A stretch of DNA of 64,000 nt from Ostreococcus lucimarinus. Its lineage: Eukaryota. Where the stretch lies: assembly GCA_000092065.1 (NCBI GenBank), contig CP000592.1; one strand, 5' to 3'. The position numbers were made by a program, and so were the translations under genes. The notes under the pieces were generated by a model. It saw nothing but the letters and a program-made list of their open reading frames with translations, did no database searches and was not told the DNA's origin. This document shows positions 4,014-64,000 of this stretch, piece by piece. How positions within the stretch are numbered: position 1 is the stretch's first letter; each line of letters opens with the position of its first letter.

Positions 4014-5696
4014 CTATTCCCACAGCAGACACACGCCATTTTTGCACGCCGACGCGAGCACGCCCGCCGCGTTCCACGCGCACGTCGCGACGACGGCGTC
4101 GTGACCGTGCAACGTCGTCATCAAGCGTCCGCCCTGTACACGCCAGATGAATAACGCCCCGTCTGCCCCGCCAGATGCGATATGTTGTCCATCCGGTGAC
4201 ACGCAAGGATTACTCCAATCAGTGCCGACGCGATATTTTGGCGCGGAGAACGTTTGCACGACGTCCATTGTTCGAATATCGACGAGTTTCAACGTGTTGT
4301 CGCGACTGTTTGTCAGAATTTCGTTTTGATTTGGCGTATCGAAGACGGCGGTGATTAAACCATTATGCACCTTCGTTTCGCGCGCTACGTTCCCCGCGCG
4401 AAGATCCCACGCGCGAATCGCGCCATCAAAGTGACCGGAATACGCTTGCTGTTCGTTTGCGTCGAAGACGACCGAGTACACGCCGCTTGAAGTCAACATG
4501 GATGACGTTACGTGTCCACGATTGAGATCCCAAAGCTTCACGTTCCGGTCCTGAGAGCACGAAATCGCGCGCTTAGCATCAATCTGGCTGATTCGCGCCG
4601 ACGTCACCTTTTGCGCGTGCCCAGTGAGTCGGTGCCGTACGCGACCGGTGAGCGCGTCCCAAAGCTGGAGCGAGCAATCGGTCGAGGTCCCGAGGACGAG
4701 CGAGTCGTCGGCGCTAAATGTAACATCTAATGCTGCACCGAGCAAACCAGTCAATTCGCTGGTTCGTGCGCCCGTATTCGTGTCGAACATAGCGATTACC
4801 TTGTCCTCTCCGGCGCTTGCTACGGTGAAACCATCGTGCGAGAGGGCGACACGGTGCGTCCCACCCTTGTTACTTTGTAAAATATGTCTCTTCTTCGAAG
4901 GCACGACGTTGCTCATGACGGTAGACATCGAAAGCGCCTTCATACTCGCCGCCGAGGCCTCAGCGAGACTCTCCGCCCTCGCATTCAATTCTACGCTCTT
5001 CTTTTGTCGCAACAAATCAGCGTACAAATCGTTAATTTCATTCATCTTCTCCGCCTCCTTCGTCTTCATCTCCATCAGTCGCTCCACAAGCTCTGCATTC
5101 TCCTTTTCTAACTTTTCTACCTTCCCCAACACCGCGTTCTTCATCGCCGATTGGGATTCTGCCTCGTCCAACGCCTGCGATTCTGCCCGCCGCGCCGCGC
5201 TCGAAGCCTCCTCCGCGTCCCTCACTCGTCGTTCCAATCGCTCTTTATCCGCCGTCAACGTCTCCACGACGCGTTCAGAGTCTAAACGCGCCATTTCCTC
5301 GCGAACCAGCGCCTCTTTCGCCTGAATCGCTTCTCGACTCGCTTCGTCGCGTCTTCCGTACGCCTCCGTCAGCTCGACGCGCGCCCGCGTCGCCGCATCG
5401 TCGCTGTCGTCGCCCTCTTCCCCCCCCCGCGCGCGCGCGAGCGCCAACTCGCGCTCGGCACGCATTGTTCGCGTCTCCGCCACCTCAAGCGCGCGCATCG
5501 CTTTACACAGCGCGTCGTCGCGGTCCATCACCGCGCTGCGCCAACGCTCCAGCTCGGCAAACAATTCATCAAACGTCGCCTCTGTCGGCGCTCTCGCGCG
5601 TCGATCGCGCTCGACGACCGCGTGACGAATGATCGTCGTCGCGTCCGCCGCCCCGCTGACGTCGAGCGCGCCGTCGGCGTCGGCGTCGTCCGCCAT
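4014..5696 (-). CDS. ATG16: Autophagy protein ATG16 (coiled coil plus 7 WD40 repeats). The start was moved to the internal ATG at 5696 (MADDADADG...).
   Basis: The C-terminal WD40 region aligns closely with ATG16L1: SGHFDGAIRAWDLRAGNVARE, NTLKLVDIRTMDVVQTFSAPKYRVGTDWSNPCVSPDGQHIASGGADGALFIWRV, ending in CLLWE. A long coiled coil lies upstream, and TFDELFAELERWRSA resembles the ATG5-binding N-terminus. The track ORF extends to 6239, but its first 181 codons are R/S/P-rich and overlap the plus-strand gene that starts at 5837. Confidence 0.7.
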   Translation of the reverse strand: MADDADADGALDVSGAADATTIIRHAVVERDRRARAPTEATFDELFAELERWRSAVMDRDDALCKAMRALEVAETRTMRAERELALARARGGEEGDDSDDAATRARVELTEAYGRRDEASREAIQAKEALVREEMARLDSERVVETLTADKERLERRVRDAEEASSAARRAESQALDEAESQSAMKNAVLGKVEKLEKENAELVERLMEMKTKEAEKMNEINDLYADLLRQKKSVELNARAESLAEASAASMKALSMSTVMSNVVPSKKRHILQSNKGGTHRVALSHDGFTVASAGEDKVIAMFDTNTGARTSELTGLLGAALDVTFSADDSLVLGTSTDCSLQLWDALTGRVRHRLTGHAQKVTSARISQIDAKRAISCSQDRNVKLWDLNRGHVTSSMLTSSGVYSVVFDANEQQAYSGHFDGAIRAWDLRAGNVARETKVHNGLITAVFDTPNQNEILTNSRDNTLKLVDIRTMDVVQTFSAPKYRVGTDWSNPCVSPDGQHIASGGADGALFIWRVQGGRLMTTLHGHDAVVATCAWNAAGVLASACKNGVCLLWE

Positions 5697-10605: not shown

Positions 10606-13296
10606 CTAGGTCAACACGTCTATGGATGCTCGACACGTCGGGCATCGTAATGCATTTCGAAGAGAACAGAGTAAGCACGAGGCGTGGAATATGTGCGAGC
10701 AGTCTGTGCGAATCAATTTTTCATTCGTTCGACATTCGTTCAAGCAAATGGCGCACGTAGTACATTCCACGTCTTTGTCAGCGACGTACGCGCGCTTTGC
10801 GATCTCTCGTAACGTCGTGTCTCTGCGATCACGCTCGACGTCTTCAGCAGTAGTGTACAAAAGTCGGTCGCTCTCCCAAAGATTCGCTCCGAATTGTCGC
10901 GCGTCAGCGGCAAATAGATTCGAATCCGTCGCGGTCAAGTCGGCGCCAAAACGTGGTGTTCCGTCGCGAAAAAGCGCCGAATCGCTCGCATAGAGATGTG
11001 CATCGGGATAGAGATTCGAACGATGAGACACTCCGGCGATAATTCCCAATCTACTCGCAATATCTAGCAGAACTTCCGCATCGAGCGCAGCGTAAGTGAT
11101 CTGGGCTTGCGCGAGTGGTCTGGCATCCCAGTTGCTTCGCTGACAGCGCTTATCGAGCGCGTATCCGAGCGTTTCGGAAACGATGGAAGCCAACGAGTTC
11201 ATGACATCGCCTTGCAAGTCGATGACGTTGGCGTCCTGAAAACAGCCGGGTAGAGGGCTCGAGGACGACGACGGATATGACTTGCTCGCGACACGAAGTC
11301 GTTTCCAGTCTTGCTCTGGGGCAAACGCAATCTTTTTCATACCCGATTCACCGAACACGTCTGCGATGAATGTAGACATCCGCGTCCGTTCGATTCGTAA
11401 ACAATCGATGACGAATGTTTCGCAATTGTGCACTGGAGAAATTTGGAGCGTTGAAATCGGTCGCGGATCACGCCATTCGCAATCAAATGCGAAGGCGTCA
11501 CAATGTGGCGACGCAAGAACTTCTTTGATTCGCTCTAATCCGCACTCGTCTTCCACGACGATGATTCTCTTCTTCGGCACCAGGAGGGGAAGTTCAGAAG
11601 AAATTGTCATACTTTGAAGGTTTGCGTCGACGTCGAGAAACTCGTCCGGCGCGCGAAGATCAAATGTTTCGCGCAACGTTTCGCGCGTCAAAGCGTACGC
11701 CTTTGCCTCCAACCAGTCGCCTCGATCCATTAGATCGTCCAAAACTGATATTTCCATGCACTCCACGATCGCATTGCTGGCAATCGTCGTGATGTCGTTT
11801 TCCCACGTGTCCACCAAACGTCGCGCCACTTTTGACACGGTCTTTGAATCCAATGTGGCAATGGCTTCGTCCAATCCCGCGAAAATTGGTTGCCTCCACG
11901 ACTCGACGCGTCCTCCAAGATCAGCTAAACTTACCGCTGTATGTGCGACTGAGGTGGGATCGCTCGCATCGATGGCGCTGCACATGCGTTGCGCAAAATC
12001 CGTGACGCTCTCAAGCGCTCGAGACGTTGTCGTCATCGTCTTGGCGTCTGTTATTTCGAGAAGCGCCGCGATATCATTCAACTCACGGCAGTTGGTCTCT
12101 TCGCACGCACGCACGATGGCAGATACAATTTGATCTTCCGTAAACATCATCTCGCGATCCTTCATCGTCGTGACGAATGTTGAAACCGATCCGCAAATGT
12201 CAAACATTTGTCGCGACGTCACTGAACTCCACGCGCCGTTGTCCATCGCGCTCGCGACGGCGGAGGCTAAAATCCTACACGCAGTTCTACGCGCCTTCTC
12301 TTCGCGAACGCGCACACGATCGGATATTCCACAGTCACGGAGTCGCACACCCACCAAAGCTCGCAATATCGATAAATTGCCATCGTCGTCGGCGACGCCC
12401 GCGAGTGTCTCCGCGGCGCGCGAAGAAACATCCGGCTTCTCCCCGCTCACCGCAATGGCTGTCTCAGCACGCAATATCTTCGCCACTAACTCAACCATGG
12501 CGTCACTTTCGACGTCTTTCGACAATCTTTGGTCCCGCAACAACGTCCCAAACTCCTCCCACGCCGTCTCCGCGTCTTTTTCTCGCTTCTGCTTCGCCGC
12601 CGCTTTTCGCTCCAGCGAACGATCAATACCGTCGGGATTATCCCACGACACTCCTTTATTCAATCGACTAAAATTGCCTCGACGAGATTCCCTCGTCGAC
12701 ACCCCCCGAGCCGGTTCGTTCGCCACCTCATCCGGAAAAAATCGCTCATCCAGGTCGCCGTACTTTAAGCCGTCCGAGTGCGACGCTCGAAAATTCCACC
12801 ACGTCGTCTCTCGCCGCTCGGCTTCCTCGATCGCCTCGATCGTCGCCCTTTCGCAGTGCGACAGCGCTAACGATCGCACGCTTTGTCCCTTATTATTCAC
12901 TATTTTCACCTTTGCCCCGCGCTGCAGCAGGTACAGCACGACGTCGTCGCGACATCGCGTCGTCGCGTAAAACACCGCCGTCTTTCCGTAGTTGTGTCGC
13001 CCCGTGCTGATCTGATCGATCGCCCCTCCCCTCTCCAGCACGCACTTCACCACGTCGAGCGACCCTCGCCACGCCGCGAGGTGCAGCGGCGCCTTCCCGG
13101 ACCTCGCCGCGCGTCGCGCGAGCAATTCGTCGTCGCCCTCGGGTCGCGCGTCGAGCCACTCGCGCAGACCGTCGACGTCGTCGGCCACGAGCAGGCGCTG
13201 CGGCACGCACGCCTCGGCGCGTCGCGCGCGGGCGACGATGGGCATGCGCGCGCGCGCGGTCGCGAGGCGCGACGACGACGGCGCGCGCGCGCGCAT
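10606..13296 (-). CDS. Ankyrin-repeat / 3'-5' exonuclease (DEDDy, WRN/RNaseD-like) / RING-H2 finger protein. The start was moved to the internal ATG at 13296.
   Basis: Ankyrin repeats: KAPLHLAAWRGSLDVVKCVLERGGAIDQ...GKTAVFYATTRCRDDVVLYLLQRGAKV. Exonuclease motifs: AFAFDCEWRDPRPISTLQISP (Exo I DxE) and ITYAALDAEVLLDI (Exo III YxxxD). C-terminal RING-H2: CTTCAICLNECRTNEKLIRTDCSHIFHASCLLCSLRNALRCPTCR. Codons 1-185 of the track ORF are antisense to the BolA gene. Confidence 0.6.
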   Translation of the reverse strand: MRARAPSSSRLATARARMPIVARARRAEACVPQRLLVADDVDGLREWLDARPEGDDELLARRAARSGKAPLHLAAWRGSLDVVKCVLERGGAIDQISTGRHNYGKTAVFYATTRCRDDVVLYLLQRGAKVKIVNNKGQSVRSLALSHCERATIEAIEEAERRETTWWNFRASHSDGLKYGDLDERFFPDEVANEPARGVSTRESRRGNFSRLNKGVSWDNPDGIDRSLERKAAAKQKREKDAETAWEEFGTLLRDQRLSKDVESDAMVELVAKILRAETAIAVSGEKPDVSSRAAETLAGVADDDGNLSILRALVGVRLRDCGISDRVRVREEKARRTACRILASAVASAMDNGAWSSVTSRQMFDICGSVSTFVTTMKDREMMFTEDQIVSAIVRACEETNCRELNDIAALLEITDAKTMTTTSRALESVTDFAQRMCSAIDASDPTSVAHTAVSLADLGGRVESWRQPIFAGLDEAIATLDSKTVSKVARRLVDTWENDITTIASNAIVECMEISVLDDLMDRGDWLEAKAYALTRETLRETFDLRAPDEFLDVDANLQSMTISSELPLLVPKKRIIVVEDECGLERIKEVLASPHCDAFAFDCEWRDPRPISTLQISPVHNCETFVIDCLRIERTRMSTFIADVFGESGMKKIAFAPEQDWKRLRVASKSYPSSSSSPLPGCFQDANVIDLQGDVMNSLASIVSETLGYALDKRCQRSNWDARPLAQAQITYAALDAEVLLDIASRLGIIAGVSHRSNLYPDAHLYASDSALFRDGTPRFGADLTATDSNLFAADARQFGANLWESDRLLYTTAEDVERDRRDTTLREIAKRAYVADKDVECTTCAICLNECRTNEKLIRTDCSHIFHASCLLCSLRNALRCPTCRASIDVLT

Positions 13297-13370
13297 GCGT
13301 GTGACGACGTCGCGAGCACAGACGGCGAAACAATTGGATTCGCCGAGGACGCACACGTCGTCGCGCGCGC

Positions 13371-13604
13371 ATGAGCTCGACGCGCGAGGTGCGCGAGCTG
13401 CTCGAGCGCGCGTTCGCGCCGTGCGCGGAGCTGGACGTCGTGGACGTGAGCGGGGAGTGCGGGAGCGCGTTCGAAGTGCGCGTGGTGAGCGAATCGTTTC
13501 GAGACAAGAGTCGGATTGAGAGTCATCGCGCGATTCACGACGCGCTGGGGAGCGTGATGGGAAAGATACACGCGCTGAGCGTGAAAGTGGCCAAGGCGCC
13601 GTGA
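13371..13604 (+). CDS. BOLA: BolA-like protein (BolA2 type)
   Basis: 77-aa ORF with ATG at 13371: ...LDVVDVSGECGSAFEVRVVSESFRDKSRIESHRAIHDALGSVMGKIHALSVKVAKAP. This is a canonical BolA fold signature (SGGCGS..F.V.VVS..F.GK....HR.V...L....IHALS.K). Confidence 0.75.
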   Translation: MSSTREVRELLERAFAPCAELDVVDVSGECGSAFEVRVVSESFRDKSRIESHRAIHDALGSVMGKIHALSVKVAKAP

Positions 13605-45060: not shown

Positions 45061-45688
45061 CCCGCGTCGTCGTGTGCGCGTCGGCGCGTCGCGAACGCGC
45101 TCGACGCGCGCGCGCGCAAACCGGGCACTCCCGGGCAGCGCGTTCGCCGCGTCGCCGTCGCCGCGTCGCGCGCCTCGATCGTCGCGCGCCTCGATCGTCG
45201 CGCGTCTCGACGTGTCTCTCTCGCGCGCGCGGTCGAGCGACGCGCGCGACGCGCGAGGCGCGCGCGAGGCGCGACAACGCGACGCGTCTCTGGGACAGTT
45301 TCGACGAAGATGCGTTCGCGATGAACGACGACGACGCGGCGATTCGAGGGTATCTCGCGCGTCTGCGCGACGTCGAGGGCGAGGGCGACGCCAGCGCGGT
45401 GGACGCGCAGGGCGTGCTCGTGGAACTCAAGGTGCGGCGACGACGACGACGACGACAGAAGGATGATGATTTGATTTGATTTGATTTGGAAACTGACGAA
45501 CGGTGACGTAGGAACGATGCGAATCGATCGCGAAGGAAGACGTGGCGCGTCTGGGGATCCCGGGTGCGGTGTTCGATCGGCGCGCGGGCGTGGTGGCGTT
45601 CGTGGAGGCGACGGATGGACGACGAGGGAACGCGTTCGCGACGGCGCGAGCCAAGGCGTTGGACTTGACGGGAGAGCTCGCGACGAGG

Positions 45689-48600
45689 ATGGAGGGAATG
45701 GACGGCGATGATGGTGGGTTGGGATCGCGAGCCAGGGATGGGTTTGAAGTGATCATGATGACGTTTCGTAAGGAGACGTCGATGAGCGTGCGCTCGGGGG
45801 CGTTGAAGACGCTGTTGACGTTGGCGAGACGATACGCGGGCGAGATTGGACGAGGGACGATGCAGGCGTACGGACGGGCTTTGCGCAGAGATTTCGAGAG
45901 TTACACGAAAAATAGCAAGACGGTGAAAGGTTTGATATTGCGAGTCATCGGCGGTATGCACGAAGGGTTGCGACGCGAGGGTTTGACGCTCGTGACGGCG
46001 GAGGAAGCCATGGAGGACTCGAGTGCGCCGACGGCGAAGTGGTTGATGACGGCGTCGTGTCGCATTTTAGATGCCGCGCTGGACGATGAAGAAGACGTAA
46101 AGAAGGAGATTGTGCTCATGGCGAGCGCGTTATATGCGATTACGGCGTCCTTATCCGCGCGCGTCGCCGAAGAAGGTGCGGACAAGGCGAATTTTGCGCG
46201 CATTGTTCGCATCGTCGAGCACGCGGTGTCGTTGCGAGAGACTGGAACTCGAACAGACATGTCCAAGGCAGCGCTTGACTTAATCACCACGCACGCGCAC
46301 GCGTTGAGACACGAACTGGTGAAAATCTCTTCCAAGATGTTCGAGCTCCTGTTGAATTTGCGCACGCACAACAACAAGGAACTGGCTCGCTGTGCGGCAG
46401 CAGCGTACGAAGAGTTTTTACCTGCCATGCGTGACGCGTTCGTGTGCGATACGTTTTCTTCATCACGGGATTCCCGCGCAAAATTACTGGATGATATTTT
46501 AAAAGTCATCATGCGGATGCTAGACGACGAGAAAACGTCACAACGTGATAAGACGGCGTGCGTTCACGCATTGGGGAAATTCGCCGCGCCGGCGATGGAG
46601 TTGCTCTCCGACGACTACGCAGAGGTGAATACATACATGGAACGACTCGGCAAGCTCACGATGTACATCAAATTTCAGCAAGGAGAAAATGAGTTTCAAG
46701 AAAGATTCGAAAGCATTGAGCGTCAGGTGGCATTACTATCGGCTTTTAGCGACGTATTGCGATCTTCAAACGTTATGATTGACGAGGCGCTTCTAGAGAC
46801 TTTCGCTGGTTTGGTTGTTTGGATTTGGGAGCAGTACGCTTTCGAACTCGAGAGACGTAAACCTCAAATTCGTAACGCGTTGCTGAATTTGTTTGTCGTT
46901 CTCGCTTCCAAAGGTTGCGCTCTTCAGACACTCTTGACGCGCATCGGCTCTCAGCTTTTGTTCTTGACGCTCCGATTTTCTGAGCCGGACCCAATCGACA
47001 AAGTGCTGTGCAAAAACGATCCGGTACCGATGTGGCCTCGTTACGTCGATCTTTGGACGGCTCTCATCGGCGGCGGCAATGAATGCGCCGCAGGCGTTTA
47101 CGGTTGTTTCGTAAACGAGCTCCTCAACTTTTGCACTACGCTCGATCTTGGCATTGTGACGCCTACCGGAGAGGATTCGAATAGCGAACGAAACGCACGA
47201 ACCGATACTTCTACTAGCGATGATTTAGACACAACTTCAGTGGCGGTGAGCTTAGGCGACGACGCAAGCGCATCTAATCCGGGTGATATGTGCACCTTCT
47301 TACAGCTCGTAGAGTTCGCACAGCGAGTCATTGAGGAGTCCCCTGCAGACGCATTACTGCCTTGGGTGAACCATATCAGCACGAAATTAATGGCGATGGC
47401 TAATCGAAACAGCTCGATTTCTGCCTTTTACAAACTCATTGGAACGATCGTCAATGCCGCTGATCGCAGTGGATACTTTGGCAGACGAGATTCAGCCGAA
47501 GTGGAGCAAGTCGTCGCGCTGTTTCGAGAATTCTTACGAGATGTTTTGCAAGACACAAGACGATTCTCCGGCGAGCTGCTCGCGTCTGTGTTACAATTAC
47601 TATTGACACTCCCTTCGGTAATACTTCCGATTGAAAATTTGATAGCACCACTGTTGCGAGCCCTTGAACTTGGTCTACAACATCCTCCGGTGACGACAAT
47701 CGCTTTGAACACCCTCGAGCGCTGGCTCGATGGTAAGCATCTAGATGAGACTTCTCCGCACTTAGTACAGATAGCTAAACGCCTTAGTGCGTACTTGGAC
47801 AGCGCATCGAGTTCGAATGCGTTCTTTGGCGAAGTATACGAAAGCGAGGGTCGCGACAGGAAGAAAAAGCAGGCGAGCAAGGAGCAAGACGAAATGAGGC
47901 TCAAACGCGCGACTTTCATTCGGATCGTTAAAATTTTGGGCTCGATGGGTGGCGCAGCACACGGTTTATTGTCTGCAAAATCAAACAGTGAGCTCGACTC
48001 GCCGTGGGATTCTGACTCGAAGCTGTCGATGCCCATCGGTTTGGTTCGATCGTCTACAAAGTTATGGCTCGATAAATTACTTCCTCGCACTTCTCATTTG
48101 GCTATGTCTTCTCAAGATAGAGCGACAAAAATTGCTGCGTGCGAGGCACTTTATGGTTCAACTGTCTTTTTGATTGGCAGAAGCGCGCAAGGTCCGACGG
48201 CGTCGGCGGGCGATTTCACTCGCAGCGCATCTCAGTACCGCTCAATTTTCGAGAAACTTTTCCCAATAATTTTCGAATTGTCTGTCGATGCTGATGCAAT
48301 CTCCAGAAAGCTCTTCAGCGACCTTAGCTTCCAAATGACCAGATGGTATGCGAAGAGCCAAGCTCGTGAGTTGGACGTGACACTGTGTTTGTTTGACGCC
48401 TTAATCGAGGGACTGTCAAACACTTCAAAAGCCGGTGCCGTTCGTGATCTTTGCGCCTCACTAGTCGCAGAGTTGTTAGAGTGGAGTATAAAATATGTGC
48501 GAGATACGAAAGCGTTCGAAGGTACGGTAAATCACAGGTACATTCTGCGCACCTTGTTCGGATTGATGGGACACACGGGCTCAGCGCACAGATTGGGTGC

Positions 48601-51600
48601 GGTCACGGCGCTAAGAAAGTGTCTCAAGCATGTGACGAAGCATCGAAACTTGCTCGATGAATACGTTCTGGAAATACTTAACGTTACATTCAAAAGTATT
48701 GAAAGGTCGGGTGAACATTCTTTGACTGTTGGAGTTTCCACGAGAGGCGCTGATGTTGCTATGGCTATCGTTGTTCGCGAGATCCTACGCGCTATCCAGA
48801 CTCATGCGAAATGGCTCCTGCATTCACCGGGATCAACAGTGTCGAAATGTACTGACTCATTCATGCGAAGTCTACTCGAGCTCACCGCTAGCGGTGATGA
48901 TTTCTTGAGACGCGAGGCACAGCAGGCTTTTGCCACCATCGCGCCGCTGGCGCTTTCTGACGTCCGACGGTGGCTGCAAGGCAACTTGCATGTGATTTCG
49001 TCTTGCGTCGATGCTTCAGTTCCCGAAATGAAGGCGCTTGAGAATGGGAGCAAACGGCTGCTTAATAGATTTATCGCCGTCGTGCAGTGGTCAAGTTGGA
49101 CTATGTCCATGCATTTCACTGATTTGGAATTTTTCACCGCCTCGAGAACGACGCACTTTCATGCTGTCGGTCAATATTTAGATAGCATTTCTGGTAGACT
49201 CGAAAGTTCTTTCGTTCTAGAACAAGATACACCAGCCAATCAGACTGGTCATTTAGCTCGCGAAATTCTGGTTCTCTTTGATAGTATTTTGAACTCGCCG
49301 TGGAGTGGTGGCGATAAGGAAGCGCTCTTGGCGCTCTCCTTACCGCAAGAAAATGGAAACAGACGCGTGATCAAGCTGATATCGTCATCCATCTTCTACT
49401 CGCAAAACATTGCCAATGACGCTGATTCTAGTCGCAAATACCTTATGCCCGCTGCGGCACAGCTTCTGAGAACGCTTACAAAGGATCACGGTTCGAGCAA
49501 AGTTGCGCGACTAGGGGAAGAAGCATTTGCGTGTCTCAGAGGACTGATTGCGCTACCAAAGTTTGATCTCGGTGCGATCAATTTGGAGAACGCACAAGGT
49601 TGCATAGCCGCACAACGACTCGCCGACGGATATCGCGAGCTCGCGAATGTGCTCGTGCTACGCAGAATTCTACCACAGGAAGGTGAATCATCGGCAAAGA
49701 ATCTGACTCGTCGCGCGGCGACAGTCGTGCGTAATTTGTTCCACGCAAATCCTCCTCAGCGTGTGGTCGGCCAAGTCGTGATGCAGCTTTGTCTGCATCT
49801 TAACATAGCCCCTAGTGCTCTTCTTGACCTTCTTCTTGACAGGGTCCAAGATTCAGATGCGAAACTCGGTGAGACATTCTATCGCAATTACCGAGAACCC
49901 ATTCTGCGCGCATGCAAATATTCATTCGACGATTATGCCGGTGACTTGTTCAAAGTCGCTGGGGCGGACGTTCAATCACCCAGTGGTGCCGTCGTCACCG
50001 ACGTCATCGTCAGTGTGATTGAGCTCTCAATCCCAAAGGAAAACGCGACGCAAACTCGAAGTTTGGATGGAGGACGTGTACTGGCCACTCTGAAAAAGAA
50101 CATGTCGCATTTGTGTCATCTGTATGAGGATCACGAAGACGCCTCTGCCGTCGTGAAAAATACCTGTCATCAACGATTTTTGGCAATTCTTCGCGCAGCG
50201 GTGAAGCTAAATCGAGCGCTTGGATCGAGCCACGACTCGATTGCATCGGAGGACAGTTACACGAGTTTCTTAACTGTTATGGCTGGCTTGATGCGATGCG
50301 TGCGATGCGACTGCATCTCTCTGAGTTCGCAAGTTGATGCCGTCATGATCACCGCTGAGATTTTGGAGGGAATTAACATATCAAAATCATCTCGCGATGC
50401 GCTGGAAAAGAGTTTGAGTGATTCGTTGAAAAATATGGTCGTTCAAGAGCGATGTGATTCAACCACGTTCAAGAAACGTTTTCCATCAACAGTGAAAGCC
50501 TTCAAACAAGCGTTTTCCAAATACCAAGCACCATCGCTGATTGCTGCGCTTCTTCCGTTTTACGATGATTCAGATTCAAAGTCGGTCTTACTGGAAGAAG
50601 ATGTCACGGAAATACGATGGAATGCCGCTGTAGCGCAACAGATATGGCTCATTGCAGAGGATGAACATGTGGCAGTTGAGTCTCGCGCACTCGCCGTGTG
50701 TCGCATTCTTCCAAAACTTTTGTCGTCGAGCGACCCCACACAAGTCTTGGCGTTTTTCACGGATAATGCAAAAGCGATCGCGCAGGATATCGGCGGCGGT
50801 AAAACTGATATCCTATCGCGATTAAGGACTTTCGGTGTCTTGTCTGCGATGTACTCAAAGTGCACGAAGCAAGAAGTGATGGATGGACCTTGCGTGCAAG
50901 TTCCAAAACTGAATGCCCTCGTTTCAAAAGCTGTAATCAGCGAACTCAGTGGACACGGAACGGCAAGTAAATCGCTCTTAGGTCAAGAGAGTATCGCGTT
51001 GCACGCGACAAAAATGGCCTTTTCTGTCTTTGCGTCGCTGCTCACCTGCACACAGACAGATGTCAAGTTTTACGCCAAGTTATTTGAGAACGTTGCGTCA
51101 TGGAATAATCTGGTCGACCGGACAAAACGCGTGAAACTTGAGGCGACAATGGAAGTGAAACGAGCTCAACGAAACTTGAAAGCTGACGTGAGTACTACAC
51201 GGCTCAAATCGTTCACTTTGTCTTCAAATCTTGCGGCGATGTACTCCCTGAAACCGTCTGATACTGCCGAGAATGATAATCTCGCCGCCGACGAAGATAT
51301 TGCGCAACAAGACAACCATTCAAAAGGTACCCCGCGAGATGAACTCGAGGCTCACCCGGTGTCTGATGGCGTCTTTAAGATGCTAAAGCTCGTCGTAATG
51401 CGCGGTTTGACGGGCGATGCAAGTGGCTTGCGACCGGAGATGCAACTTTTGGAAATGGTTTCGTGTCTGCTGTACTCTCCCGCGGTTTTGGCTTCGGTCA
51501 AACTTCTCGTCGTCAAGGCGTTACTTAGATTAAACGATGATCTCACATCTGAGTCCAGTGGCGATGTCGGCATGACTGTTTTGATTACACAGCCATCGTT

Positions 51601-54600
51601 CCTGGCCGCGCACTCGGACCTTATGATTGCACTTCTCTCCGCGATGATTGAAATCACGAAGGAATCTGATGCCGCGTACGTGTCAACACCTTTGCGAAAA
51701 ACTATGAACATCGCGTTGGAGTGCGACAACTTGTGGTCTTCGAACTTTGAGGAAGCAAAAACGAGCATATTTGAGGCCACCGAGCTCGTCATCAAGAGTG
51801 GGTACTCGAGGAATGAAGACATCTTCAGAGAGAATCTCAAACTCTGCAGCAAGTTGTTCTCGCGTTTGCGTGACACCGCGCGAATGACAAGTACACCTAC
51901 GTCGCATTGCTTCCAAAGTTCGATGTATCAATTGCAACGACATCTTGAGTGCAAGCCAAAAGACCCCAGAAACACGAGTCTGGTGAAAGTATGTGCGCTT
52001 CGGAAGAAATTCGCTATTAAACTCATCGAGATATTAATCAACGCTGAAGCACCAGTATTGTGCGTTCGCGATACGAGTGTTTTCATCACGACTGCTCAGG
52101 GGAAGAAAATTGACGAAGAAATACCGTCACCTCTTTTGAATATTTTGTTGCGTTTTATCGATAAAGACGTTCGTAAGGGGTTGACAACGCTTGCTGCGTC
52201 GTTACTTGGTAGAATCATGAAAATCGATGGCGGTGTCGCTCAATGGCACAAATCCTTGCAAAAACAGTTAAAAGGTGTGAGTGACGACCTCTTACTGAAC
52301 ACGCTTGATCAAATCACGATAAGTTGTCCATCATTTGTGCACGATGCTGGATTCGCACCATCGATACAGTCACGTCTTGATACATTCTGGGGCGAACCGC
52401 GGTGCGTGGCGCTGCTGATTTTGACGAGAGATCACAGACCAGAACGGGTACAGTGGACATACGACCGACTATTGCCGTTCGTTGGTTCTCTATTGAAGCA
52501 GCGGGATTGCGAAGTCATGATTATACTTTTCGAAGCGCTCACGCGCGGCGCTCAGGCAATCACACGAACTCAGAGAGACGCAAATCATATCGAGCTATGG
52601 AAGAATGCTCTCGTTGAAGCAGACAATGCGGTGTCGATGGAAAGTGCTGTCAAAGTTCGCGAATCGCATACAAACTTGTGCATTGCCATTGCGGAGACGT
52701 ACCCTAAACTCATCAACGAATCGTCGTTGCAAGGTCCACTTTTACGAGCACTCGCCGATCCCGTGAGCTTGACTTGTCGACAAACGGCTTTACAATTTTG
52801 GAACAAGCGACTGCAATTCGATAACTTGGTCACGCGTCTTCACGACACCCTCCAATTGATTCCTCACGCGAAAGTAGAGAGTTTATGGCTCGCTGCAGCG
52901 TGCAGACTCTTATTTGCGGTACAAGAGATGAATCCGGCGTCAAGGGCTCCTTTGATTGACAACGACCTATCGGAGTGCGTGTTCACTTCGGTGAAGCTGG
53001 ATTCGTTGCGCCGCCGTGGAGCGTCTCAAACCATGGCTCCTTTGTTTTCAACTCAAGCGCAAGACCCGGACGCGGATGAGAAGCGAAGTGTCGTGCTCTC
53101 GACAATATTGGCAAACTTCAAACAACCTGCACGTGGTGACCCAACGATTGCGACCTCGCTTCCGTACGAGCTAGCGAATTTATTACAGTCGCAAGAGCAC
53201 GTCAAAGACTTTGGTGCGTTCCATGAGATTGCGCAAAATCTTGACATTGGAGCCAACAAAAAGAAGATCGACGATTTTCTGGTCGAAGAGATGAAAAACA
53301 GCGTCAAGCTGACTCGATCTTACAGGACAGGTGACTTACCTGACGTGAAAATATCGTGCCACGAATTGATTACGCCTTTCCTCCTCTGCGCTGAACGCGA
53401 TTCGGCAGTCGCATGCACGCTTCTCCGAGAGCTCGCGAATTCAGCACAGCATGAGTTTGCATTCATTCTAAAAGACCAAAATGATGCACGTCCAGCAAAG
53501 GAAGCGATGGCGATCGTGGCACAACCGCTGAAAGATTTCGTCGGAAGCATTGAAGGCAGGGATGCGTCGCTCGTTCGATTCATCCTTTCCTTGTGTGAAG
53601 TCATCCCACAAGCCGCGGAAATTCCTGTCGACCACGTCGTTCGACTCGCGACACGCGGTAGAAGTTTATCGAGTGGTGTCATCGCGATGGAGTCGATGAT
53701 CACGTCTGGTGATCAGTCACCGCAGACTTGGGAAGCTTTGGCTAAACTATACAGATCGCTGGGTTACGACGACGCCGCTTTGCTGTCGTTTGTGAACGCG
53801 TTTCCTCACCAGGAGGAGACGATGTGTGCGATTCGACAAGAGATGGCTGGCAATGTGCGAGATGCCGTGCAAGCGTACAAACACTTATTGAGTGCTGAAA
53901 TTGATCGATCTCCGCGAGAGAGCGAGTTTTTGAAACATGAATTTTTTCGCTGCGCCGAGCGGCTCGGAGAATGGGATGAAATCGGAAAACATCTCGAGGA
54001 CGTGCGAACTGGCGAGTTTAAAATCGAAGACTTGTCTTGCATTCCTGGAGAAGCTTCGGGTGGATCTAGTATTTGCACAGCATTTAGAGTCGCTCTTCGT
54101 CAACCTTTGGAAGACTGGTCGCCATTCTTGACCAAAGTTCTTCTGCAGGAGGACTCTACTCGCAAGTTGAAGCATCTCGGTGTAGAGATTGCGATGAACG
54201 CGCTGCTATCTGACAGTGCCGGCGACGATACTCGTGAGGTGCATGATGTATTGCAGCAAGTTTACCAAAGCTTCATAGACTCATGGAGCACGACCTGTAG
54301 TGCGTCCGTTGCCATTCGTCGGAAACTGCTGCAGGCCTTACAACCAGCCGTCGAGATCGACGAAACATTGCGCACGATTGACGAACTGAAGACAGGACTT
54401 CGCAAGCTGAAGAATATGGACATCAAGAAAGCGGAATCTATCGTCAATCAACTCGAAAGCAAATGGCAAACACGATGGCCTTCGGCTGCGTACGATGCGT
54501 CTGAGGTTTGGGAACGCGTCGTGACTTTTCGCTCCAGGATGCTGGGCACGCTGGCAAGTGTGATTCCAGAAATTCGCACAGATTCTATTGCAACGATGCG

Positions 54601-57139
54601 GACTGAAATGTTTCTACGAGCATCCGACGGTCTGAGACAAGTCGGTCAAGTGGTTCTTTCTCGCAAATTCTTGCGACAATACATCGAAAGTGTGGTACAA
54701 ACAGGCGCGCCCGAGGATTTGAGACTTCATGAAGCAGTGTTTAAGCTCAAGCTGTCGATGGGTACGAACACCGCCATGGAACAATCATTGGAAATGTGCC
54801 GAAAGTTGCAGAGTGAAGATCGATGGCGGGAGGACGATAAAATGAGCCTGACCATTTTAGAAGCACAATTCTGCGAGCACCTAGCGAGTGCACGCGACGA
54901 TGATTCGTTGAGTCATAGCATCGCGGCGATCAATTCTTATATCTCTGTTGCAGAACGAAGCACAAATGCAGCGCAGGCGTCCGAGGCGTCGTTGAGACTC
55001 GCTCACTTTTGCGACACAGCGCTAAAAAAGCTACACGGTGAATACGTGCAAACGTCTGTATCGACCGAATGCGCAGAAGCATTAAACGGTTGGCTGGTAT
55101 CGAGTCTAAACGACGCGTCGAGTCTTGCGGAAGTCTTCATCCTACACACTTTGAAGGCATTGGCGGCTTCCAGCGCGCATAAATCTACACCAGCGCGTCA
55201 TCTATTACCTCGACTTCTGACCTTGCTCAGAGAAACTTGCCCCGACGCTCGCGACTACAGTCAGACACTCTTACGCGTCCCGACTTGGTTATTTTTGGAT
55301 TGGATTCCGCAGCTTTTATCGATGGTTTCCGACGTGAATCTTCGAAAGGTTGCTGCGCCGTTGGTACAAAGATTGGTGTCAAAGTATCCAGCGGCCGTAC
55401 GACCGCACTTCAACCTCATCAAAGAAACGATGGATAAACATATAAGTGAAAGGATGAACTTTTCGCTCGCCTCGTCGCTACACGATGGATTCAATCGTGG
55501 TATGGAGCTCTTGGATTTCCCTTCGAATCGATTGAATTTTTGGCGTCAACAAATTCAACTCCGCGAGTATCAGCACGACGTCAACGCCGCGAGCAATATC
55601 GTCGATGGCATGATTTCAGATCTGACAAATACAGAAGATCCTTTGTTGGGCTTGATTAACAAACGGTTCGTTGAAATTGCGTCACCAATGTTGACGAGCG
55701 CGATAGCCACGGCGCGCAGGGAGAAAACGAGCGTCAACGCCGCATTGAAACATGCCGAAGCTCAAATCGTCGCAGTTTGGGTCAAAGAATTCCCGGGTCT
55801 AAACAACGCATCAAGAATCCGACTAAGCGACTTCTCTTCATGGTTTGCGAGCTATGCGAGCTTTGCCGGAGTTTCAACAGCCCTGGAAATTCCCGGGCAG
55901 TACGACAACATAAATGCACCGCCAGATATGGAGCGACACGTCACCATAATGGGATTCGCACCGGAAGTACAGGTCTTCGAATCCAAGCAGCGACCAAAAA
56001 AAATAACGATGAGAGGAAGCGATGGCAGAGATTATCAGTTCATCGTGAAGGGTGGAGAGGACTTGCGTCAAGACGAGCGCATTCAGCGCTTATTCAGAGC
56101 AATGAATGGGCTCTTGGCCTCTAATACGGAATCTCGAGGTAGGGGGTTAGAGGTTCGGACTTTCCATGTCTCCCCTCTATCTAATCGAACCGGCTTGATT
56201 GAATTTTTGCGCAAAACTTCGCCGCTGCTTCGGCTTCTGAATAAGCCTGTTGAAGAAGCGAATGTGACTGCATTCGTTGAACATCAACGATGGATTAAAG
56301 AGCGCGCGACGGGACTTGGCAAGCGAAAGCGAGAGTCTGCGCATGTAGATGCGACGACACACAGCGACTACCTCAGTGCGATAGGCAAAGCATCGAAAGA
56401 CGACTCGGTGGCTATACTCACGCGATTGAAATCGGCGACGACGTCGCCAGATGCTCTACGGAAGATTTTGTTCACAGCCGCAGGCAGCGCAGAAGCTTTC
56501 GTCATGATGAGGCAATCATTTGCGACATCTTTAGCATCCTCCAGCATTTGTGGCTACGTTGCTGGAGTTGGCGATAGGCATCTGGACAACATCCTTCTCG
56601 ATATATCGACGGGAGAGTTGGTACACATCGATTTTGGGTACGCCTTTGGCACCGCTACACACGCTCTTCCGATTCCTGAACTTGTCCCATTCAGAGCGAC
56701 TCCAGCTCTTCTCGATGTTTTCTCTCCATTGAACGCGCGCACGTGGCTGGAAACGGACATGTGCCGAACTATGAAGGCGCTTCAGGACGGCTCGACACTT
56801 CTCAAGGGCGTGATGGACATTTTCCTTCGCGATCCCCTAATCGATTGGGAACGCGAATCCGTGAGTGCAGGTACGCAATCTCACATCCAGAACAGAATCA
56901 CTCGCGCGTGGGGCAAATTAGAACTCGACAATCCAGCCGTCGTCGTCGTCGACGAGTGCGAATCAAAGCACAAGAATTCTGCACATTGGACAGATTTGCG
57001 CAAGACGCTCGTTGGCGCGAATGCGCCGCCCGCGAAGAAATGCACCGATGTCGAGCATCAAATTCGTGCGTTATTAGACTTAGCGACCAACCCAGAACTT
57101 TTAGCCGTCGCGTGGAGCGGATGGCGACCCTGGCTTTGA
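45689..57139 (+). CDS. PRKDC: DNA-dependent protein kinase catalytic subunit (DNA-PKcs / PRKDC homologue), about 3.8 k codons
   Basis: The frame is open from 45512 but has no ATG before 45689. The track start at 45542 is a GTG. The PI3K-like kinase domain reads KITMRGSDGRDYQFIVKGGEDLRQDERIQRLF, GYVAGVGDRHLDNILLD, and HIDFGYAFG. The FATC tail LLDLATNPELLAVAWSGWRPWL (cf. human [22 protein letters not shown]) is specific to DNA-PKcs. The internal region TYRTGDLPDVKISCHELITPFLLCAERD aligns to human [28 protein letters not shown]. Confidence 0.85.
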   Translation: MEGMDGDDGGLGSRARDGFEVIMMTFRKETSMSVRSGALKTLLTLARRYAGEIGRGTMQAYGRALRRDFESYTKNSKTVKGLILRVIGGMHEGLRREGLTLVTAEEAMEDSSAPTAKWLMTASCRILDAALDDEEDVKKEIVLMASALYAITASLSARVAEEGADKANFARIVRIVEHAVSLRETGTRTDMSKAALDLITTHAHALRHELVKISSKMFELLLNLRTHNNKELARCAAAAYEEFLPAMRDAFVCDTFSSSRDSRAKLLDDILKVIMRMLDDEKTSQRDKTACVHALGKFAAPAMELLSDDYAEVNTYMERLGKLTMYIKFQQGENEFQERFESIERQVALLSAFSDVLRSSNVMIDEALLETFAGLVVWIWEQYAFELERRKPQIRNALLNLFVVLASKGCALQTLLTRIGSQLLFLTLRFSEPDPIDKVLCKNDPVPMWPRYVDLWTALIGGGNECAAGVYGCFVNELLNFCTTLDLGIVTPTGEDSNSERNARTDTSTSDDLDTTSVAVSLGDDASASNPGDMCTFLQLVEFAQRVIEESPADALLPWVNHISTKLMAMANRNSSISAFYKLIGTIVNAADRSGYFGRRDSAEVEQVVALFREFLRDVLQDTRRFSGELLASVLQLLLTLPSVILPIENLIAPLLRALELGLQHPPVTTIALNTLERWLDGKHLDETSPHLVQIAKRLSAYLDSASSSNAFFGEVYESEGRDRKKKQASKEQDEMRLKRATFIRIVKILGSMGGAAHGLLSAKSNSELDSPWDSDSKLSMPIGLVRSSTKLWLDKLLPRTSHLAMSSQDRATKIAACEALYGSTVFLIGRSAQGPTASAGDFTRSASQYRSIFEKLFPIIFELSVDADAISRKLFSDLSFQMTRWYAKSQARELDVTLCLFDALIEGLSNTSKAGAVRDLCASLVAELLEWSIKYVRDTKAFEGTVNHRYILRTLFGLMGHTGSAHRLGAVTALRKCLKHVTKHRNLLDEYVLEILNVTFKSIERSGEHSLTVGVSTRGADVAMAIVVREILRAIQTHAKWLLHSPGSTVSKCTDSFMRSLLELTASGDDFLRREAQQAFATIAPLALSDVRRWLQGNLHVISSCVDASVPEMKALENGSKRLLNRFIAVVQWSSWTMSMHFTDLEFFTASRTTHFHAVGQYLDSISGRLESSFVLEQDTPANQTGHLAREILVLFDSILNSPWSGGDKEALLALSLPQENGNRRVIKLISSSIFYSQNIANDADSSRKYLMPAAAQLLRTLTKDHGSSKVARLGEEAFACLRGLIALPKFDLGAINLENAQGCIAAQRLADGYRELANVLVLRRILPQEGESSAKNLTRRAATVVRNLFHANPPQRVVGQVVMQLCLHLNIAPSALLDLLLDRVQDSDAKLGETFYRNYREPILRACKYSFDDYAGDLFKVAGADVQSPSGAVVTDVIVSVIELSIPKENATQTRSLDGGRVLATLKKNMSHLCHLYEDHEDASAVVKNTCHQRFLAILRAAVKLNRALGSSHDSIASEDSYTSFLTVMAGLMRCVRCDCISLSSQVDAVMITAEILEGINISKSSRDALEKSLSDSLKNMVVQERCDSTTFKKRFPSTVKAFKQAFSKYQAPSLIAALLPFYDDSDSKSVLLEEDVTEIRWNAAVAQQIWLIAEDEHVAVESRALAVCRILPKLLSSSDPTQVLAFFTDNAKAIAQDIGGGKTDILSRLRTFGVLSAMYSKCTKQEVMDGPCVQVPKLNALVSKAVISELSGHGTASKSLLGQESIALHATKMAFSVFASLLTCTQTDVKFYAKLFENVASWNNLVDRTKRVKLEATMEVKRAQRNLKADVSTTRLKSFTLSSNLAAMYSLKPSDTAENDNLAADEDIAQQDNHSKGTPRDELEAHPVSDGVFKMLKLVVMRGLTGDASGLRPEMQLLEMVSCLLYSPAVLASVKLLVVKALLRLNDDLTSESSGDVGMTVLITQPSFLAAHSDLMIALLSAMIEITKESDAAYVSTPLRKTMNIALECDNLWSSNFEEAKTSIFEATELVIKSGYSRNEDIFRENLKLCSKLFSRLRDTARMTSTPTSHCFQSSMYQLQRHLECKPKDPRNTSLVKVCALRKKFAIKLIEILINAEAPVLCVRDTSVFITTAQGKKIDEEIPSPLLNILLRFIDKDVRKGLTTLAASLLGRIMKIDGGVAQWHKSLQKQLKGVSDDLLLNTLDQITISCPSFVHDAGFAPSIQSRLDTFWGEPRCVALLILTRDHRPERVQWTYDRLLPFVGSLLKQRDCEVMIILFEALTRGAQAITRTQRDANHIELWKNALVEADNAVSMESAVKVRESHTNLCIAIAETYPKLINESSLQGPLLRALADPVSLTCRQTALQFWNKRLQFDNLVTRLHDTLQLIPHAKVESLWLAAACRLLFAVQEMNPASRAPLIDNDLSECVFTSVKLDSLRRRGASQTMAPLFSTQAQDPDADEKRSVVLSTILANFKQPARGDPTIATSLPYELANLLQSQEHVKDFGAFHEIAQNLDIGANKKKIDDFLVEEMKNSVKLTRSYRTGDLPDVKISCHELITPFLLCAERDSAVACTLLRELANSAQHEFAFILKDQNDARPAKEAMAIVAQPLKDFVGSIEGRDASLVRFILSLCEVIPQAAEIPVDHVVRLATRGRSLSSGVIAMESMITSGDQSPQTWEALAKLYRSLGYDDAALLSFVNAFPHQEETMCAIRQEMAGNVRDAVQAYKHLLSAEIDRSPRESEFLKHEFFRCAERLGEWDEIGKHLEDVRTGEFKIEDLSCIPGEASGGSSICTAFRVALRQPLEDWSPFLTKVLLQEDSTRKLKHLGVEIAMNALLSDSAGDDTREVHDVLQQVYQSFIDSWSTTCSASVAIRRKLLQALQPAVEIDETLRTIDELKTGLRKLKNMDIKKAESIVNQLESKWQTRWPSAAYDASEVWERVVTFRSRMLGTLASVIPEIRTDSIATMRTEMFLRASDGLRQVGQVVLSRKFLRQYIESVVQTGAPEDLRLHEAVFKLKLSMGTNTAMEQSLEMCRKLQSEDRWREDDKMSLTILEAQFCEHLASARDDDSLSHSIAAINSYISVAERSTNAAQASEASLRLAHFCDTALKKLHGEYVQTSVSTECAEALNGWLVSSLNDASSLAEVFILHTLKALAASSAHKSTPARHLLPRLLTLLRETCPDARDYSQTLLRVPTWLFLDWIPQLLSMVSDVNLRKVAAPLVQRLVSKYPAAVRPHFNLIKETMDKHISERMNFSLASSLHDGFNRGMELLDFPSNRLNFWRQQIQLREYQHDVNAASNIVDGMISDLTNTEDPLLGLINKRFVEIASPMLTSAIATARREKTSVNAALKHAEAQIVAVWVKEFPGLNNASRIRLSDFSSWFASYASFAGVSTALEIPGQYDNINAPPDMERHVTIMGFAPEVQVFESKQRPKKITMRGSDGRDYQFIVKGGEDLRQDERIQRLFRAMNGLLASNTESRGRGLEVRTFHVSPLSNRTGLIEFLRKTSPLLRLLNKPVEEANVTAFVEHQRWIKERATGLGKRKRESAHVDATTHSDYLSAIGKASKDDSVAILTRLKSATTSPDALRKILFTAAGSAEAFVMMRQSFATSLASSSICGYVAGVGDRHLDNILLDISTGELVHIDFGYAFGTATHALPIPELVPFRATPALLDVFSPLNARTWLETDMCRTMKALQDGSTLLKGVMDIFLRDPLIDWERESVSAGTQSHIQNRITRAWGKLELDNPAVVVVDECESKHKNSAHWTDLRKTLVGANAPPAKKCTDVEHQIRALLDLATNPELLAVAWSGWRPWL

Positions 57140-57398
57140 TAGATTTGAATAACTTTGATAGATGCAAACATGACAACGCGCAGCGCTCCTCCCTGCGCCT
57201 CGACAGCCACACTCGACAGCCACACTCAAACTTCAAATCGCGACCGCGCGCCGCGCGTCGCGGGACATGACGCGCGCCGCGTAGACCGGGCGAACGAACA
57301 AACGACACCAACTATTCAATCGCCGCGCGCCGCCGCCGGCGCCGCCTTCATCAGTGGTAGCGCGCGCGGCGAAGCCGTTCCGAGACGCGACGCGCGCG

Positions 57399-63300: not shown

Positions 63301-64000
63301 AAGCACAATCGAAACTTTCAGAACCCGATGGTTTGTACGGTCTATTACGCTCCAACTCGCTGGAATTACAATTGCATTTGAGTGAGCACGAAGGTCACTG
63401 GGATAGAGCGCTCGCCGGTTACGACTTGCTGCAGAGCGACGTCGAAAACAATATGAACGGTGGAATGGCGAGCTCACGCGTGCCCATGCTGAACGCATTA
63501 CGTCAGCTCGGTTGTTTGCATCTTCTTCGCGCATACTCCAAGGCACTTTCAGACGACGAATTGGCCGCTCCAGAGCTCAAGGATGTGCAATATGAAGCCG
63601 CATGGAGAGCGGGTCAATGGACGCTGCCGGCTGCGGTTACGCGCACGCAAAATTCGGGCGTTGTAGATTTCAATCAGAATCTTCATTCGTCGTTGCGAGC
63701 GCTCGAACGAGGTGATGTAGGCTGTGCGATATATGAGACCAATCGGTGTCGTGCGCAACTGCTGCAAAATGTCATAAGTGGTGCCGCAGAATCGGCTGAC
63801 GCGATGAATATAACGATCATGCGCATGCGCATGCTCGACGACGTCACCGATGCGGCGAAATTATGGCGTCACTTCATGGGTAACAACATCGACGCGATGC
63901 AAACTGCTACCAAAAGTTTGAGCGATTCCTGGCAGATGAGACACGTGAAAGATGGTCCGTTTAAGCTCATCGAACCATCACTCGCGCTGCAAGGCGTTCT
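57399..64000 (+). CDS. ATM: ATM (ataxia-telangiectasia mutated) kinase, N-terminal about 2100 codons; it continues past the window end. Predicted exon 1 is 57399..57485, then a 90-nt intron, then 57576..>64000.
   Basis: A single frame is open from 57567 to the window end, so it is not in the ORF track. The FAT-region reads QWEKVYWLNVDYLVVAQAAI, then EPDGLYGLL...HEGHWDRALAGYDL...ELKDVQYEAAWRAGQWT, which aligns to human EPDSLYGCGG...HEAMWGKALVTYDL...ELEELHYQAAWRNMQWD. A TAN-motif-like start MDDIAALHDALRSDGLRKRRVRLE lies in the same frame upstream of an in-frame TAA, and a GTACGC...ACAG intron removes that stop. Confidence 0.8.
57486..57575 (+). other. Predicted 5' intron of ATM (GT...AG, 90 nt, containing the in-frame TAA at 57564-57566)
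   Basis: Same-frame exons lie on either side, with a phase-0 donor after ...RPRLT and a phase-0 acceptor before DGIKTLLLHLQ. Confidence 0.45.

Follow-up and report, generated by a model that had tools for sequence, protein, structure and literature searches.

Ankyrin repeats, a DEDDy 3'-5' exonuclease and a RING-H2 finger encoded by a single intron-free gene of Ostreococcus lucimarinus

The stretch of DNA analyzed in this study (the window; 64,000 nucleotides of contig CP000592.1, assembly GCA_000092065.1, from the green alga Ostreococcus lucimarinus) contains a long open reading frame (ORF) whose translation raises a question: are ankyrin repeats, a 3'-5' exonuclease and a RING-H2 finger joined in one protein and, if so, what would such a protein do? 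A single 897-codon ORF with these three elements had been described from the letters of the DNA alone (hereafter the sequence-only reading), and our analysis agrees with that description. The ORF lies on the minus strand, an ATG at 13296 gives 896 amino acids (897 codons including the stop), and the Pfam matches are all above their curated cut-offs. The strings quoted in that reading, AFAFDCEWRDPR and YAALDAEVLL for the exonuclease and CAICLNEC...CSHIFHASC...CPTCR for the RING, were every one found in the translation. One intron-free nuclear gene of O. lucimarinus CCE9901 encodes one polypeptide. As to its function, we lean, with little more than even confidence, towards a bifunctional exoribonuclease and E3 ubiquitin ligase, a reading that is drawn from sequence and predicted structure. 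The features of the gene are listed below; residue numbers refer to a protein of 879 amino acids unless marked as 896 numbering.

10606-13245, minus strand: whole coding sequence, 879 codons plus the stop at 10606-10608 (ORF list, translation and orthologue starts)
12811-13200, minus strand: ankyrin repeats, residues ~16-145, about three helix-turn-helix repeats plus a cap (Pfam Ank_2 and Ank, AlphaFold2)
12736-12804, minus strand: invariant motif WWNFRASHSDGLKYGDLDERFF, residues 148-170, the best-conserved segment of the family (alignments)
11626-12618, minus strand: all-alpha middle domain, a helical-repeat-like scaffold, residues ~210-540 (AlphaFold2)
11047-11559, minus strand: DEDDy 3'-5' exonuclease, residues 563-733 (Pfam PF01612, invariant catalytic residues)
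10759-11028, minus strand: linker, residues 740-829, predicted disordered over 740-799 with a helix at 800-817 (AlphaFold2, sequence)
10630-10758, minus strand: RING-H2 finger, residues 830-872 (Pfam zf-RING_2, conserved ligands)

Reading frame, start codon and orthologues

Analysis of the frame revealed no stop codon anywhere within it and no in-frame ATG between the exonuclease and the RING. The last in-frame methionine is residue 682 of 879, within the exonuclease domain; the final 197 codons contain no ATG, and a RING-only product would therefore have no start codon. A search with the tail alone matched only fragments of the same family, and the tail was never seen as a separate protein. 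When the same domain order was sought in other algae, nine further 90%-identity clusters, all Ostreococcus/Bathycoccus-like and at 51-61% identity, were found to be collinear from the ankyrin repeats, or from the motif that follows them, through the RING. The gene also keeps its syntenic slot: the four relatives whose DNA was examined share a neighbourhood consisting of a histidine phosphatase, a tetratricopeptide repeat (TPR) gene, in some cases BolA, the ankyrin-exonuclease-RING gene, an alpha/beta hydrolase and Myb. A separate RING gene was rejected on the lack of a stop and of an ATG past residue 682 and on the conservation of frame and linker, and the view that this is one gene rather than two stands. 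The loci of the relatives range from 48 to 60% guanine plus cytosine (G+C), which suggests that the RING-bearing relatives are several Ostreococcus-like species, perhaps including Bathycoccus.

The minus-strand frame is open from 13851 down to the stop at 10606-10608. The ATG at 13296 adds 17 residues to the product of the ATG at 13245, which begins MPIVARA and has 879 amino acids. Translation probably begins at the ATG at 13245, because the methionine of an MPxVARA sequence is aligned with it in four orthologues and the JGI gene call (879 amino acids) starts there too. An N-terminus reaching 13851 was rejected: the extension is not conserved and overlaps an opposite-strand BolA-like gene, whose presence on the plus strand at 13371-13604 indicates that the upstream part of the frame is not coding for the ankyrin-exonuclease-RING gene. 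This BolA-like gene has 77 codons and is divergent from the gene under study, their start codons being about 125 bp apart; the pairing also occurs in two sister species (L007 and L010). Just upstream of the ATG at 13245 lies a (CG)n-rich simple stretch (window 13246-13300), and three independent public contigs (L004, L005 and L006) end there, 1-2 nt before the start codon. The probable cause is that low-complexity sequence broke the assemblies, not biology.

The identical protein is present on independent contigs, and two neighbouring window proteins are identical to XP_001420640.1 and XP_001420641.1 of O. lucimarinus CCE9901. No NCBI or UniProt model of the exact O. lucimarinus gene was found; the 879-residue form occurs only in JGI and Logan and the 896-residue form in Logan. 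The sequence is already in public collections, as a hypothetical protein. Within the library that could be searched, no paper was found on the ankyrin-exonuclease-RING architecture or on a YbaK-ankyrin-exonuclease protein.

In sister species L007, ankyrin repeat 2 of the orthologue is interrupted by a canonical GT..AG intron (about 2868-2958, roughly 90 nt) that the window gene does not have; this intron accounts for the split of the L007 gene calls into two ORFs and for the in-frame insertion in P0002. P0045 (801 amino acids, from an ENA contig of 265,727 bp and in the same 90% cluster as the window protein) is frameshifted after ...GVSHRSNL and has lost linker and RING; the frameshift may be an error of sequencing or assembly, or else a natural allele without the RING. 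P0119 (99 amino acids, from the transcript catalogue 'merc') joins ..YLEAKA at the end of the helical domain to LLFRDG.. in the linker and skips the whole exonuclease. An exonuclease-skipping isoform was rejected: the corresponding L007 genomic junction (4192-4221, 4915-4944) has no GT/AG, only 3 nt of GCG microhomology, and in view of the missing splice signals P0119 is probably a chimeric assembly.

Exonuclease, RING finger and N-terminal modules

Pfam found all three domain families (PF01612, Ank_2 and PF13639) above the curated cut-offs. The exonuclease family DNA_pol_A_exo1 (PF01612) matched residues 580-750 (896 numbering) with an expectation value (E) of 6.2e-18 and 65.6 bits against a cut-off of 23.6, covering positions 3-168 of the 173 in the profile. 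The exonuclease fold spans residues 555-735 of the AlphaFold2 model, which was built from a 25-sequence alignment and has a mean predicted local distance difference test score (pLDDT) of 81.9. The catalytic residues are intact: D588 and E590 (ExoI), D646 (ExoII), and Y718 and D722 (ExoIII), that is D605, E607, D663, Y735 and D739 in 896 numbering, are invariant in 11 aligned sequences, and the catalytic D, E and D are also invariant over 25 sequences including diatoms.

The exonuclease had been called WRN-like. This holds at the superfamily level, where fold and five catalytic residues are the same, and does not hold for the nearest relative. Comparison with solved structures, used here in place of a tree, gave the exonuclease domain of Nibbler ('mut-7 homolog', 7jw2) as the top sequence match (phmmer E 1.5e-9, and 1.1e-15 with a profile). 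Weaker phmmer matches followed to EXD2 (8e-6), Pol I exonuclease, RNase D (5e-5) and Rrp6, and WRN was not among the phmmer matches at E<=0.01. By fold, two Nibbler exonuclease structures lead (Foldseek 3.5e-8 for 7jw2 and 7e-7 for the second), and mouse WRN exonuclease (2e6l) comes next at 4.5e-6. No helicase, HRDC or DNA-binding domain was found in the protein by Pfam. By both sequence and fold, the predicted exonuclease is thus nearer to the Mut-7/Nibbler trimmers of single-stranded RNA than to WRN.

The C-terminal RING-H2 finger is complete. The zf-RING_2 profile (PF13639) matched residues 847-889 (896 numbering; E 3.5e-9, 37.2 bits against a cut-off of 27.3). The zinc ligands C831, C834, C849, H851, H854, C857, C868 and C871, followed by R872, have the spacing C-x2-C-x14-C-x-H-x2-H-x2-C-x10-C-x2-C, and all eight are conserved in the ten RING-bearing sequences. 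Also kept in all ten are isoleucine or valine two residues past the first cysteine (C-x-[IV]-C), proline past the seventh ligand and arginine past the last (C-P-x-C-R), and these positions align with RNF4. The nearest solved RINGs are RNF4 (E 2e-8, single RING), then synoviolin/HRD1, AMFR and RNF165/Arkadia (phmmer 2e-8 to 1e-6 overall), and all of them are active E3 ligases. In RNF4-type RINGs these conserved residues bind and activate the conjugate of ubiquitin with its conjugating enzyme (E2). Conservation of the residues that hold ubiquitin-charged E2 favours an active E3 over a finger with a solely structural role.

Between exonuclease and RING, linker residues 740-799 are predicted to be disordered (pLDDT 32-40). 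About three 19-residue repeats ([ST]D.xLF......FGAxL), kept in the ten orthologues, lie within this stretch; the model also places helices over 772-817. The linker has no Pfam or PDB match. Mean pairwise identity is 57% for the linker and 58% for the RING, close to the level elsewhere in the protein (53% mean column identity over the whole alignment).

The proposed N-terminal ankyrin repeats were recovered by two profiles: Ank_2 over residues 66-132 in 896 numbering (E 6e-9, 36.8 bits against a cut-off of 27.3) and Ank (E 1.3e-7, 31.9 bits against 21.1). Profiles and paired helices of the model (pLDDT mostly 80-97) together give at least two tandem 33-residue helix-turn-helix repeats. Among the RING-bearing orthologues, mean identity is 78% over the ankyrin region and 81% over the motif that follows. 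The consensus of this motif is WxNFRxSHSDGxxYGDLDxRF. Its columns W166...F186 (896 numbering) are invariant in the 11-sequence alignment, and in the 25-sequence alignment H/S/D/Y/G/D/L/D/R are invariant or at least 90% conserved from green algae through diatoms. No match to the motif was found in Pfam or PDB, and it has a pLDDT of 54-72 within a lower-confidence segment of the model (residues 150-206). The helical middle domain, about 330 residues, is modelled with a pLDDT above 90.

Distribution of the family and comparison with known systems

A profile search of 1.84 billion representatives placed the RING-bearing form in a single 50%-identity cluster, with the Micromonas pusilla orthologue (C1MQA7/XP_003058095) ranking next. 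More than 100 further 50%-identity clusters match in two stretches, first the ankyrin repeats and motif and then the exonuclease; a named diatom member is Psemu1 13496 of Pseudo-nitzschia multiseries. The RING pattern was found in none of the 122 other family representatives, diatoms included, which accords with the view that the architecture is non-standard. Most RING-less representatives stop 20-30 residues past ExoIII. In M. pusilla CCMP1545 the ORF ends right after ExoIII and the downstream gene is unrelated; a RING hidden downstream was rejected, since the next ORFs contain none. Because Micromonas stops after the exonuclease and none of the 122 representatives carries a RING, linker and RING are a derived addition seen only in the Ostreococcus/Bathycoccus-like branch. 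The source of the addition was not found by word-index searches with the tail or with exonuclease plus tail, which gave only same-family fragments.

These algal relatives share the ankyrin repeats, the invariant motif, part of the helical region and the exonuclease with the window protein as true homologues, but the RING-less ones have neither linker nor RING. Some carry other domains instead. The tRNA_edit domain (PF04073, YbaK-type) was confirmed by Pfam in P0014, P0155 and P0237, and YbaK-homologous regions were found in about 25 representatives, roughly a fifth of the family, by within-family searches in which the small local database makes the E-values generous. The YbaK-type domain lies N-terminal of the ankyrin repeats, and many such members have an unannotated extension of about 300 residues past the exonuclease.

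Among known systems, Mut-7/Nibbler proteins are described as having a HEAT-like N-terminal domain and a DEDDy exonuclease that acts specifically on single-stranded RNA, followed in most cases, on a flexible linker, by the zinc-finger-bearing MUT7-C domain (PMC11347159). As well as providing the best exonuclease match, the Mut-7/Nibbler/EXD3 group has a parallel layout, with a large helical region before the exonuclease and a zinc module on a flexible linker after it. The algal protein differs in its added ankyrin repeats and invariant motif and in having a RING-H2 in place of the PIN-like/zinc-finger domain. MUT7-C (PF01927), which most Mut-7 members have kept and drosophilids have lost, gave no Pfam match at E<=1, and the RING-H2 occupies its place. 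We do not class the protein as a member of the Mut-7 family, since it lacks MUT7-C and its helical domain could not be shown to be homologous.

WRN exonuclease and plant WEX, EXD2, RNase D and Rrp6 share the fold and the five catalytic residues (Foldseek 4.5e-6 to 1e-4), but all rank below Nibbler, and the algal protein lacks the RecQ helicase and HRDC domains of the WRN type. To our knowledge, none of these proteins has ankyrin repeats or a RING. RNF4, HRD1, AMFR and RNF165 share the cross-brace spacing and the conserved isoleucine, proline and arginine positions; the algal protein, however, has no SUMO-interaction motifs, transmembrane segments or other hallmarks of these ligases, and its RING is the tail of a nuclease.

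An N-terminal ankyrin recruitment module is joined to a RING in plant XB3/XBAT and animal MIB1 and to a nuclease in RNase L, ANKLE1 and ANKZF1/Vms1, and MIB1 was among the matches to our ankyrin region. We know of none of these proteins that has all three modules, or whose nuclease fold is related to DEDDy. Ccr4-Not (Caf1 DEDD exonuclease and Not4 RING E3) and PAN2 (USP-like domain and DEDD exonuclease) are precedents for joining a 3'-5' exoribonuclease to modules of the ubiquitin system, but in Ccr4-Not the two activities are on separate subunits and in PAN2 the ubiquitin-system domain is an inactive protease. This likeness is functional, and no homology is claimed beyond the superfamily. Each pair of modules has a precedent, and none of these systems is known to have all three in one chain.

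Proposed function, alternatives and implications

In the reading we lean towards, the ankyrin repeats, invariant motif and helical scaffold would recruit a ribonucleoprotein substrate, the exonuclease would trim a free RNA 3' end, and the RING on its disordered tether would ubiquitylate either the enzyme itself or a protein held with it in one complex. The coupling of nuclease action to ubiquitylation suggested in the sequence-only reading is an inference, as is any part in repair or quality control. The best single guess for the RNA is the tRNA 3' end, because about a fifth of the family carries the YbaK-type aminoacyl-tRNA editing domain. Fusion of a deacylase for the aminoacylated tRNA 3' end to a 3'-5' exonuclease suggests that the family may act on tRNA 3' ends. 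A role in small-RNA trimming of the animal type is unlikely, because O. lucimarinus and O. tauri have neither Dicer nor Argonaute (PMC4014436).

Several observations weigh against a bifunctional enzyme. The transfer of a tRNA role is weak, since the YbaK fusions occur in RING-less relatives at about 25-30% identity. The DEDDy fold is uninformative on RNA versus DNA preference, and WRN exonuclease, EXD2, RNase D and Rrp6 are significant matches as well. The helical domain could not be matched to the N-terminal domain of Nibbler/MUT-7 or to any solved structure. The RING can be structural or purely autoregulatory, and the P0045 frameshift, if real, would make it dispensable.

The alternative that survives best, although we consider it unlikely, follows from the last of these points: the RING would only autoubiquitylate the enzyme and so set nuclease abundance, or would be a structural zinc module replacing MUT7-C for binding of partners or RNA. 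MUT-7/EXD3 proteins have a zinc-finger domain on a flexible linker C-terminal of the exonuclease, for partner and RNA binding (PMC11347159), and the order of exonuclease, disordered linker and zinc module is the same here; the RING-less P0045 also fits. However, all ten sequences keep the E2-contact residues and the arginine that follows the last cysteine, which a purely structural finger would not need, and Pfam finds a RING, not MUT7-C.

Rather more doubtful is a role in DNA repair, in which the exonuclease would act on DNA 3' ends like WRN exonuclease or EXD2 and the RING would signal through ubiquitin at damaged chromatin. The matches to mouse WRN exonuclease by Foldseek and to EXD2 by phmmer are significant, and the nearest RING is that of RNF4, which acts in the DNA-damage response. 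Against this, the best matches by sequence and fold are to the exonuclease of Nibbler, which is RNA-specific (PMC11347159), WRN goes undetected by sequence at the threshold given above, relatives are fused to a tRNA-editing domain and not to DNA-repair domains, and Pfam finds no helicase, HRDC or DNA-binding domain.

That an ankyrin-exonuclease gene and a small RING gene are merely read through in one frame is very improbable: the Micromonas orthologue indicates that a RING-less form is viable, and the linker is disordered, but the reading is contradicted by the sequence as analyzed here, with its unbroken frame and ATG-free last 197 codons, the conservation of frame and linker in ten species-level clusters, a convergent neighbour that ends 35 bp past the stop codon, and a tail never found on its own.

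Returning to the bifunctional enzyme, a bolder extension, which we put forward as speculation and consider improbable, concerns the whole algal ankyrin-motif-exonuclease family. It might constitute an unrecognised eukaryotic system acting on the 3' (CCA) end of aminoacyl- or peptidyl-tRNA, in which some members would deacylate through the YbaK-like domain and then trim. In Ostreococcus/Bathycoccus, the RING would make this a one-polypeptide quality control that degrades the tRNA or RNA 3' end and ubiquitylates the protein that is attached, or adjacent, within the same stalled complex. If true, the protein would be a fused counterpart of Ccr4-Not (Caf1 and Not4) or of ribosome-associated quality control (ANKZF1 and Listerin).

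Elsewhere in the window, the first 45 kb have 61% G+C and densely packed genes, as expected for the O. lucimarinus genome. A homologue of DNA-PKcs is encoded at 45542-57139 on the plus strand by a single 3865-codon ORF with the Pfam domains DNA-PKcs_N, CC1-2, CC5, FAT, PI3_PI4_kinase and FATC; its G+C fraction is ~0.49-0.50, compared with 0.61 in the first 45 kb. Unlike the densely coding left part, positions 57300-64000 (low G+C, 0.48-0.55) contain a single ORF that reaches 150 codons. The stretch may be rich in introns, or non-coding, and perhaps belongs to a compositionally atypical region of the chromosome.

If both modules are active, a DEDDy 3'-5' exonuclease and a RING E3 would here be described in one chain for the first time, and a natural fusion of this kind, if active, argues that RNA 3'-end trimming and ubiquitylation share a target. 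No established view would be overturned; eukaryotic RING fingers commonly gain further domains. The minimal genome of Ostreococcus lacks RNA interference and the alga is open to genetic manipulation, so that the role of a nuclease of the Mut-7 type could be tested there directly, away from small-RNA pathways. Of greater consequence may be the wider result: over 100 unstudied clusters of ankyrin-motif-exonuclease proteins in marine green algae and diatoms, with an invariant motif and, in some, a fusion to a tRNA-editing domain.

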